A DNA stretch of 64,000 bases from Escherichia coli. Lineage in GTDB: Bacteria; Pseudomonadota; Gammaproteobacteria; Enterobacterales; Enterobacteriaceae. This document shows positions 60,296 through 60,944 of the stretch, in pieces. Position 1 is the first letter of the stretch, and each line of letters begins with the position of its first letter. Under the pieces are notes generated by a model, which worked only from the letters and a program-made list of their open reading frames with translations, was not told the origin of the DNA and made no database searches. Both the position numbers and the translations under genes were made by a program. The DNA is taken from the NCBI RefSeq assembly GCF_041248615.1, contig NZ_CP158426.1, one strand, 5' to 3'.

Positions 60296-60395
60296 CATTA
60301 CTGAACACTAAAACCTGACGCACATCACAAAATTAGAACGATCAGTTCATGAACCAACAGACGTGACATCGAGTGATTTATGGACAGCGTTTAAC

Positions 60396-60428
60396 ACAGT
60401 TATGAACCAAAACTGAGTTCATAACTGT
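60396..60428. repeat. 12-bp perfect inverted repeat ACAGTTATGAAC-N9-GTTCATAACTGT; related palindrome GTTCATGAAC at about 60345..60354
   Basis: read directly downstream of the CMD gene; terminator or operator. Confidence 0.4.
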
Positions 60429-60740
60429 GAGTTTGAATCGCCATTTGATTAATATCCATTTAAAACAGTTTGTTATACTGTTTCTGGTGCTGTCGTAAAT
60501 TATGTATATTCCTCAAACCCAGAATAGTTAAATGGAATTTGAGTGATGCGAAGCGATTTTCCAGTCGTCGTTATTACTTCAGGGTTCCAGAACATAAAGC
60601 CTCTCCTCTTTCATAATTGGCCTGTGCATACCGGATATAGGCTGGCAGGTTTGCCGTTTGCCGCATCTTCCCTGCGTTGAAGAGTCAGGCTGGCAAACCA
60701 CACACCCTCTTTCCATCAACACTTCAGACAGCTTGCGGGA

Positions 60741-60944
60741 ATGAGTTCACTCCGGTATCAGAAATGGCTACGCCTCAATGAAGCCAGGCGACTGATGCTG
60801 AATGAACATTACGATGTCACCACTGCAGCCTATGCTGTCGGTTACGAAAGCTTATCCCATTTCAGTCGGGAATATTCGCGGATGTTTGGAGAGTCACCTA
60901 AGAGAGATATTACCAGGTTAAGAAAGTCTGTCGGTCAGCTTTAA
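60741..60944 (+). pseudogene. AraC-family regulator C-terminal HTH fragment (yneL-like remnant)
   Basis: 67-aa ORF holding only the second AraC HTH region; no intact upstream sensing domain. Confidence 0.55.

Follow-up and report, generated by a model that had tools for sequence, protein, structure and literature searches.

The island between dif and yneL

The window, that is the whole 64-kb stretch of E. coli DNA that was analysed, contains 7.7 kb between dif and the yneL region which are absent from E. coli K-12. In K-12, dif joins the yneL region directly (order hipA, GGTGCGCATAATGTATATTATGTTAAAT, 6 nt, TGAGTGATG, and onward into yneL). The original prediction had proposed an alignment with K-12 as a check, and this alignment revealed a junction and no base-for-base match. 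The additional DNA, referred to as the island, begins with the first base directly 3' of dif and extends from 52839 to 60533; K-12-type sequence returns at 60534. On both sides the island is bounded by GTTAAAT, and the copy at 60527-60533 corresponds to the last 7 nt of dif. The following features were located in this part of the window.

52811 to 52838, plus strand: dif, composed of GGTGCGCATAA, TGTATA and TTATGTTAAAT, intact
52839 to 52904, plus strand: left end of the island, 66 bp
52905 to 60295, no strand assigned: island cargo according to the RefSeq annotation, which places a gene for a LysR regulator on the minus strand (53135-54034) and lists a redox operon of eight genes, the last of them from the carboxymuconolactone-decarboxylase family (59492-60295)
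60296 to 60533, plus strand: right end of the island, 238 bp, non-coding, the conserved 3' end of the element
60534 to 60700, plus strand: backbone relics detected by blastn against a Klebsiella locus, with matches to the start region of a DUF2255 gene (60570-60615) and to the interior of an alpha/beta-hydrolase gene (60645-60687)
60701 to 60956, plus strand: yneL remnant, an AraC_N-type regulator reduced to its C-terminal helix-turn-helix part, with an ORF at 60741-60944 and a RefSeq pseudogene at 60687-60944

The 28-mer at 52811-52838, with its XerC arm, 6-bp centre and XerD arm, is the dif site of E. coli, at which chromosome dimers are resolved. K-12 and four other E. coli loci have the exact 28-mer at the same place as the window. 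The gap between hipA and yneL in E. coli is an insertion site adjoining dif. The backbone was found in 5,202 of 5,426 complete E. coli genomes and the island end in about 460-530 of them. In a survey of defence islands of E. coli, the interval from hipA to ydeT was listed as hotspot 20 (PMC10121019, supplement). In strain cS51a, a filamentous prophage forms a tandem with the island on the side facing dif, with AGTGCGCATAATGTATATTATGTTAAAT between both elements; the dif site is therefore still open to other dif-targeting elements.

The original prediction had described the gene at the right-hand side as a decayed AraC-type regulator of which only the C-terminal helix-turn-helix is left, and this was confirmed. 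The ORF (67 aa) matched Pfam HTH_18 (E = 1.4e-15) over profile positions 23-76 of 80, which comprise the second helix-turn-helix and a part of the linker; the first helix-turn-helix motif is broken by a 12-bp deletion and stop codons. RefSeq likewise annotates a helix-turn-helix regulator pseudogene with a missing N-terminus. The equivalent in K-12 is yneL (b1506), a pseudogene of the AraC family with 95% identity over the helix-turn-helix part. K-12 yneL has a 1-bp deletion, whereas the window allele keeps the intact 67-aa ORF; conversely, the window allele shows extra 8-bp and 12-bp deletions and a different upstream relic.

The closest longer relatives are Klebsiella genes which encode AraC_N (PF06719) together with HTH_18, and the yneL remnant has 85% DNA identity to the 3' end of such a gene. 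The N-terminal ligand-binding/dimerisation domain, which is represented by AraC_N in the Klebsiella relative, is absent from yneL of the window. At the Klebsiella locus, a DUF2255 gene is followed by an alpha/beta-hydrolase gene and then by the regulator. The DNA from dif to yneL in E. coli consists of three short pieces collinear with this locus, K-12 keeping a different middle piece, and E. coli has lost about 1.8 kb which separate the hydrolase fragment from the helix-turn-helix part. Judged from the alignments, yneL is a relic of a Klebsiella-like locus which suffered several internal deletions differing between lineages, and it was not cut by the island.

The boundary between island and backbone lies between 60533 and 60534 and separates the AraC fragment from the two palindromes which had drawn attention to this region. 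The palindromes belong to the island, the AraC fragment to the backbone; because this junction lies between them, they are unrelated, and their neighbourhood is coincidental. An orphaned operator of the AraC-type regulator, which had been one of the proposed interpretations, is excluded, since the palindromes are situated on the island side and travel with the island end to plasmids and species without yneL. The proposed island junction came closest. The palindromes do belong to the terminal non-coding arm of an island, but the junction itself is located about 105 bp downstream of the hairpin formed by the second palindrome. The annotation question is thereby settled: neither the AraC pseudogene nor the redox operon has its regulatory sites in the palindromes, which are part of the conserved end of a mobile island.

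The ends of the island and their repeated half-site

The right end has a G+C content of 35% in comparison to 50% for the cargo. It showed about 73% identity to at least 40 plasmid records from Klebsiella, Escherichia, Raoultella, Salmonella and Enterobacter, and was additionally found in E. coli chromosomes next to yneL. The cargo beside these relatives differs and includes restriction-like genes, other defence genes and AVAST. In every context, the homology stops exactly after GTTAAAT (60533). A scan of a genome collection with the terminal 19-mer as exact pattern identified the right end in nine further species, namely Enterobacter cloacae, E. sichuanensis, Klebsiella grimontii, Pseudocitrobacter, Tatumella, Pantoea, Salmonella diarizonae, Vibrio bivalvicida and Photobacterium marinum. 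Three of the 12 exact matches (in an archaeon, Bacteroides and Pelagibacter) were discarded as chance hits, as they showed no similarity outside the 19-mer. A phage collection searched with the right end gave no match, and the right end is therefore not a filamentous-phage attachment region. No RNA family was detected in an Rfam scan of 60100-61400 with E values up to 1, and the ORFs flanking the E. cloacae locus gave no setB/yeiP signal.

The last 20 nt of the right end form its terminal core.

60514 to 60533, plus strand: terminal core, composed of CAAACCCA (60514-60521), GAATA and GTTAAAT (60527-60533)

CCCAGAATAGTTAAAT was identical in all nine loci from Enterobacterales and Vibrionaceae, an identity which is fixed by the search because these loci were recovered with the exact query AARCCCAGAATAGTTAAAT; four loci found by blastn support the terminal core independently. 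In a subset of nine lineages, conservation of 60515-60533 was at least 85%, the only variable position being 60517 (A/G), and this threshold was also reached by the blocks 60325-60330, 60345-60354, 60397-60407 and 60416-60424. When the window was searched for a second terminal core with up to 3 mismatches, as a test of whether an older element might have brought in yneL and the fimbrial operon as its cargo, only the one site was obtained.

The left end showed about 89% identity to some 90 plasmid records and carries TGGGTTTG (52843-52850), the inverted partner of CAAACCCA. The two copies constitute an 8-bp terminal inverted repeat, located 4 and 5 bp from GTTAAAT. A terminal inverted repeat together with GTTAAAT would be the usual shape of the core site of a tyrosine recombinase. 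The flanking direct repeats are imperfect (TTATGTTAAAT on the left, AATAGTTAAAT on the right), with their last 7 nt identical. Homology of the left end of the window island to full elements ends after base 66.

The palindromes are located farther inside the right end.

60345 to 60354, no strand assigned: site 1, palindrome GTTCATGAAC, in which two half-sites overlap, at a distance of 187 bp from the tip of the island
60395 to 60429, no strand assigned: site 2, CACAGTTATGAAC (60395-60407), 9 nt and GTTCATAACTGTG (60417-60429), 132 bp from the tip

Site 1 is the palindrome with a GTTCAT core named in the original prediction, and both sites together span 85 bp, in agreement with the distance of about 85 bp given there. 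Site 2 had been described as a perfect inverted repeat of 12 bp with a 9-nt spacer; the perfect pairing and the spacer were verified, but each arm is one base pair longer (13 of 13 positions complementary). The inner 8 bp of each arm of site 2 are the half-site of site 1, and the half-site common to both palindromes is T(C/T)ATGAAC.

The 10-mer GTTCATGAAC occurs once in the 64 kb (0.12 expected), and 11 of 100 shuffled sequences contained it at least once, so that it is weak evidence on its own. Site 2 is the sole perfect inverted repeat of at least 13 bp with a loop of 3-20 nt in the window, 0.01 being expected according to Markov simulations. The hexamer ATGAAC/GTTCAT was found four times in the 238 bp of the right end (0.2 expected). 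Moreover, of the five blocks with the highest conservation in the right end across the nine lineages, three coincide with the palindromes.

The positions of both sites are preserved as well. TCATGAAC of site 1 was located at -187 to -189 in each lineage having it, including Photobacterium, and ATGAAC-N9-GTTCAT of site 2 was located 132-134 bp from the tip, always with a spacer of 9 nt, in all lineages having it. In Photobacterium, these distances are kept although the flanks barely align. The dyad of site 2 was paired in 92% of the cells, with four compensated pairs, all of them in Photobacterium, where both arms contain TCATGAAC in place of TTATGAAC and three more outer pairs are compensated. 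In the lineage from Klebsiella plasmids, the outer 5 bp of the stem are unpaired. Site 2 is predicted to fold with -23.7 kcal/mol as RNA and -14.6 kcal/mol as DNA (z-scores -5.5 and -6.9); site 1, a loop-less 10-bp palindrome, cannot fold. Both sites are conserved whatever the cargo or the orientation of the neighbouring gene.

The half-site is also present at the other end of the element. Complete left ends contain it three times in direct orientation, at +20, +97 and +131 (0.25 expected per 600 nt), of which the left end of the window island retains only the first, the GTTCATG at 52858-52864. In Vibrio bivalvicida, Pantoea ananatis and Salmonella diarizonae, only the terminal 40-95 nt of the right end are common and the GTTCAT sites are absent. 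Vibrio possesses a different 11-bp inverted repeat at about the position of site 2, which would be equally compatible with a hairpin as a structural element and with a binding site that co-evolves. In the published descriptions of GInts covered by our literature search, no mention was found of repeated T(C/T)ATGAAC half-sites in both ends.

Insertion target and relation to GInts

In every context examined, the left end starts right after TTATGTTAAAT, the XerD-side arm of a Xer-type site, and it adjoins such a site in all six further loci that were aligned. Seven loci provided Xer-type targets with five distinct central regions and flanks.

E. coli and Salmonella diarizonae, dif: GGTGCGCATAA with centre TGTATA
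Tatumella, dif: AGTGCGCATAA with centre TGTATA
Plasmids, three variants: AGTGCGCATAA with centre TCATTG, GATGGA or CAAAGA
A further plasmid: degenerate left arm with centre TGCATT

AATAGTTAAAT is the constant terminus of the right end, irrespective of the following sequence, and the 28-bp dif is left intact by the island. This pattern of five centres points to a crossover at GTTAAAT by recombinases of the element and not to an exchange within the Xer central region. The literature search revealed no paper which links GInts to dif or describes a target at the edge of the XerD arm.

None of the four recombination proteins of the element in VTB96935v gave a tblastn match anywhere in the window. 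Complete sibling elements are available from two other genomes. In VTB96935v, the order is dif, left end, two integrase genes, a gene for an 845-aa protein, a gene for a 167-aa protein, about 25 kb of cargo, right end (73% identical to that of the window) and yneL. In H9Ecoli, dif is followed by genes for a 507-aa integrase, a 554-aa integrase, an 845-aa protein and a 167-aa protein, by defence cargo, by a decarboxylase-family stump, by the right end and by yneL. The right end of H9Ecoli is of the window type (96%) and is preceded by the last 96 bp of the decarboxylase-family gene. As this stump of the last cargo gene of the window occurs before the same right end, the two elements are tied by descent. 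The integrase-like proteins of the siblings (507 and 554 aa) have typical motifs of tyrosine recombinases, as judged by eye. Comparison of the four sibling proteins to Pfam and NCBIfam gave weak matches only (Phage_integrase, E = 0.0045, below the cut-off; NF041502, 86 bits in comparison to a cut-off of 350).

The order and the sizes of these four genes correspond to the published layout of ginABCD (PMC5385486; PMC10214605, legend of Fig. 1). GInts are tripartite elements: four recombination genes at the 5' end are followed by cargo which varies and by a short 3' end in which AT-rich stretches are well conserved, and imperfect direct repeats of 10-17 nt flank the element (PMC5385486); the nomenclature of Tn6571 and Tn6488 is given in PMC8865565. 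They have already been reported in E. coli (PMC10121019, PMC10214605), with a reported presence in 7.5% of Escherichia replicons (PMC10214605). The siblings have the same tripartite organisation, and the elements of this lineage share with GInts the imperfect border repeats of about 11 nt, the strict site specificity and a cargo rich in defence and fitness genes (PMC5385486). The right end of the island, with 238 bp, 35% G+C and five conserved blocks, agrees with a short AT-rich conserved 3' end, and imperfect flanking repeats in the range of 10-17 nt were found together with site-specific insertion. An operon with the ginABCD layout at the 5' end is present in the siblings sharing both ends. 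In contrast, the window copy has no gin genes and just 66 bp of the left end. A further difference to GInts is the target: on plasmids as well as on chromosomes, the island ends adjoin the outer border of the XerD arm of a Xer site.

Membership in the GInts is thus proposed from architecture, end structure and site behaviour, the comparison with published GinA-D having been made by gene order and sizes. Since no recombination genes are present and the homology of the left end stops at 66 bp, the window island is considered a GInt-type (Tn6571-family) derivative without recombinase genes and not a complete member. The GInt kind itself is known; what is new, on the basis of comparative sequence evidence, is the definition of both ends, the half-site repeated within them and the insertion at Xer sites. 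The strand-biased circularizing elements (SE) also have terminal inverted repeats that are short and imperfect, and they show target specificity and footprints of 6 bp (PMC10214605). Their gene order is intA-tfp-intB-srap, whereas two recombinases, a large protein and a small protein follow one another here, which is the order of GInts.

Possible function of the palindromes

The explanation which probably applies is that 52839-60533 is a GInt-type island which lacks its four recombination genes and is located beside the XerD arm of dif, and that the palindromes are candidate accessory sites for recombination proteins of the element. The right end (60296-60533) would then serve as the conserved cis-acting 3' end of the element. 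Its tip, CAAACCCA-GAATA-GTTAAAT, may represent the core recombination site which pairs with TGGGTTTG of the left end, and GTTAAAT, which is common to the target, is presumed to be the crossover region. The palindromes, as dyads of T(C/T)ATGAAC at about 187 and 132 bp from the tip, would be accessory ('arm-type') binding sites for the two tyrosine recombinases, for the large third protein or for the small fourth protein. Such arm-type sites would organise the end of the element for excision and integration. Binding of a protein is suggested because the motif is present in both ends, lies in register with the crossover, is independent of cargo and orientation, and includes a palindrome without a loop. 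In the window, one of the three left-end sites and no recombinase gene remain; the sites of the right end are therefore probably inactive relics, unless a complete element supplies the proteins in trans, and the island itself is probably immobile.

Alternatively, the inverted repeat could act as a folded single strand, either as a hairpin which primes the complementary strand of a circular intermediate or as a substrate similar to attC of integrons. The hairpin is predicted to be strong on either DNA strand (-14.6 and -14.2 kcal/mol; z-scores -6.9 and -5.5), its dyad symmetry is maintained by four compensated pairs, and the inverted repeat of Vibrio has an unrelated sequence at about the same position. 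Furthermore, the related SE are proposed to move via a single-stranded circle which needs a priming site (PMC10214605). Against this, site 1 is as conserved as site 2 and has the same half-site, yet it is unfoldable, and the three half-sites of the left end are direct and non-palindromic. In addition, loop and left arm are conserved in sequence, the outer stem is unpaired in one lineage, and no strand bias was shown for GInts (PMC10214605). A folded strand is therefore rather unlikely as an explanation.

Even less probable is a transcription terminator or insulator which would prevent read-through from the cargo operon into the chromosome, although a terminator of the island operon had been among the interpretations of the original prediction. 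The position of the hairpin, 100 bp 3' of the last co-directional cargo gene (stop at 60295), its RNA fold of -23.7 kcal/mol and the sequence CAUUUGAUU after the extended stem would be compatible with such a function. However, the G+C-rich stem with a directly following T-run that characterises intrinsic (Rho-independent) terminators is not what was found: the stem is AT-rich, and the tail is neither T-rich nor conserved (GCCACCCCC in Photobacterium, AATGTGGATT in Chimaeribacter), with no conserved T-run in either direction. A simple scan for promoters and terminators detected nothing at the palindromes, and the same sites are conserved beside a cargo gene on the opposite strand. Site 1, which cannot fold, the fixed distance from the tip and the copies in the left end would all be left unexplained.

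It is very improbable that the island is an element of the IMEX type, which would have been integrated at dif by XerC/XerD of the host, with a degenerate dif-like site in its right end and the palindromes as accessory sequences. IMEX (CTX phage, TLC, the gonococcal genetic island, and EludIMEX/EcloIMEX of Enterobacter) are likewise located at dif, keep one functional dif and can form tandem arrays with filamentous prophages, an arrangement also seen in strain cS51a. The island is situated exactly at dif and has no recombinase gene, right ends of the window type contain ATTATGTATATT, which is similar to the dif centre, and Xer dependence has been ascribed to elements at dif in Enterobacter (PMC7855592, PMC11138976). 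However, only 15 of the 28 positions of dif agree with the putative right-hand site (counted by hand), which has 18 nt, not 4, between centre and GTTAAAT, whereas the left site is a perfect dif. The XerD side of the right-hand site is the invariant AATAGTTAAAT of the element on every replicon and not the arm of the target, and its similarity to the dif centre becomes weaker in other lineages. The same ends also occur beside five different Xer centres, which would not be tolerated by Xer strand exchange, and complete siblings encode two tyrosine recombinases of their own. In contrast to IMEX, which have no recombinase of their own and recombine inside the dif centre, the junction is here outside the 28-bp site and complete relatives possess recombinase genes. 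A right end derived from dif by insertions was therefore dropped as an explanation, as the same end is found at other centres and beside recombinase-carrying siblings.

Least probable of all are functionless palindromes conserved merely by recent common descent of the island ends: within E. coli, the unchanged palindromes are not significant against a background divergence of 4-6%, and the window island is probably immobile, but the blocks are at least 85% conserved, and in register, across lineages of about 55-75% identity with diverging flanks.

With the palindromes read as candidate accessory sites of a GInt-type element, the comparison provides for this lineage both ends, a likely crossover sequence and a repeated candidate motif for protein binding; the cis-requirements of GInts have so far been essentially undescribed. 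More tentatively, and somewhat less probably than this reading of the island itself, the enterobacterial and vibrio lineage as a whole may be a hunter of Xer sites. Its members would use their own recombinases to insert directly outside the XerD arm (TTATGTTAAAT), both at chromosomal dif sites and at dimer-resolution sites on plasmids, T(C/T)ATGAAC would represent their arm-type sites, and islands without recombinases and mini-elements of 0.9-1.3 kb would be relics or passengers. If this is true, the 28-bp site is spared and a target is guaranteed on nearly every replicon, and some dif islands which have been labelled Xer-dependent, for example the carbapenemase EcloIMEX of Enterobacter, might use this route. 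The finding gives reason to check whether dif islands assumed to be Xer-dependent really are. As the lineage adjoins Xer sites on chromosomes and on large resistance plasmids, it also suggests a route, open to testing, by which cargo for defence and fitness may spread.

A further, minor repeat is located between site 2 and the terminal core.

60463 to 60483, no strand assigned: inverted repeat AAACAGT, 7 nt, ACTGTTT

Its predicted DNA fold is weak (z = -2.5). Short inverted repeats are also present in other lineages, where they differ in sequence but lie about equally far from the tip.

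Spread and decay of the island cargo

Beside the window strain, the redox cargo together with the right end of the island was detected in Enterobacter sichuanensis WCHECL1597 (L019 23-4683), with an identity of 92%. Core genes of Escherichia and Enterobacter are expected to show an identity well below this value. Because the observed identity lies far above the core-gene expectation for both genera, the sequence comparison argues that the island has crossed between Escherichia and Enterobacter. The window strain carries the island's amidohydrolase gene in intact form (window 56300-56900 region; L001 8204-8791); in other island carriers this gene is split or contains an internal stop (cS51a, L003 5114-5648; a further carrier, L004 5089-5791). 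Judged from these gene structures, the island cargo is evidently decaying in some lineages.

Mini-elements and neighboring elements at dif

The ends were also found in two mini-elements:

L023 648-1569, Salmonella enterica subsp. diarizonae: mini-element of ~0.9 kb, end sequences only
L018 4458-5793, Enterobacter cloacae DSM 26481: mini-element of ~1.3 kb, ends and gene remnants

In E. cloacae DSM 26481, the gene remnants come from an MFS gene, which is truncated, and from the decarboxylase-family gene, of which a stump is left. The left end of this mini-element is preceded by ACATAAGTTAAAT and not by a full dif; this sequence is possibly the end of another, tandem element.

In E. coli cS51a (NZ_CM176585.1; L003 1-1652), a filamentous prophage, which encodes a Zot-domain protein and a secretin, is located between the hipA-side DNA and the island. 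Prophage and island, two distinct elements that both target dif, are arranged in tandem with AGTGCGCATAATGTATATTATGTTAAAT between them.

According to two reports, EcloIMEX and EludIMEX are carbapenemase islands of Enterobacter inserted at a dif site; in these reports their Xer-dependence is an assumption and their mobility is stated as unsettled (PMC7855592, PMC11138976). These islands might be members of the same GInt-type lineage as the window island.

A candidate half-site in the right end

About 33 bp from the tip, in the block at window 60499-60512, the right end contains the motif TTATGTA. This motif is similar to the T(C/T)ATGAAC half-site and to TTATGTT, with which the XerD arm begins. 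In the window type, it also resembles the dif centre. The aligned block reads TTATGAA in Chimaeribacter and TCATGCA in Vibrio. By its sequence, the motif may represent a fifth half-site and may hint at the mode of XerD arm recognition.

The backbone beyond the island

The dif-yneL spacer of E. coli occurs as two alleles (window 60630-60734 versus K-12, L002 6545-6655, minus strand), which have kept different fragments of one ancestral Klebsiella-like locus. A stretch that forms a hairpin, GCGCAGTGTCTGTCGCATAGACACTGC, is present in the K-12 allele. The fimbrial operon adjoining yneL is complete in the window strain (window 61378-64000 and beyond; L001 13279-19642) and comprises the major subunit, the chaperone, the full usher and ydeS/R/Q; in K-12, the usher is truncated (ydeT) and the first two genes are missing.
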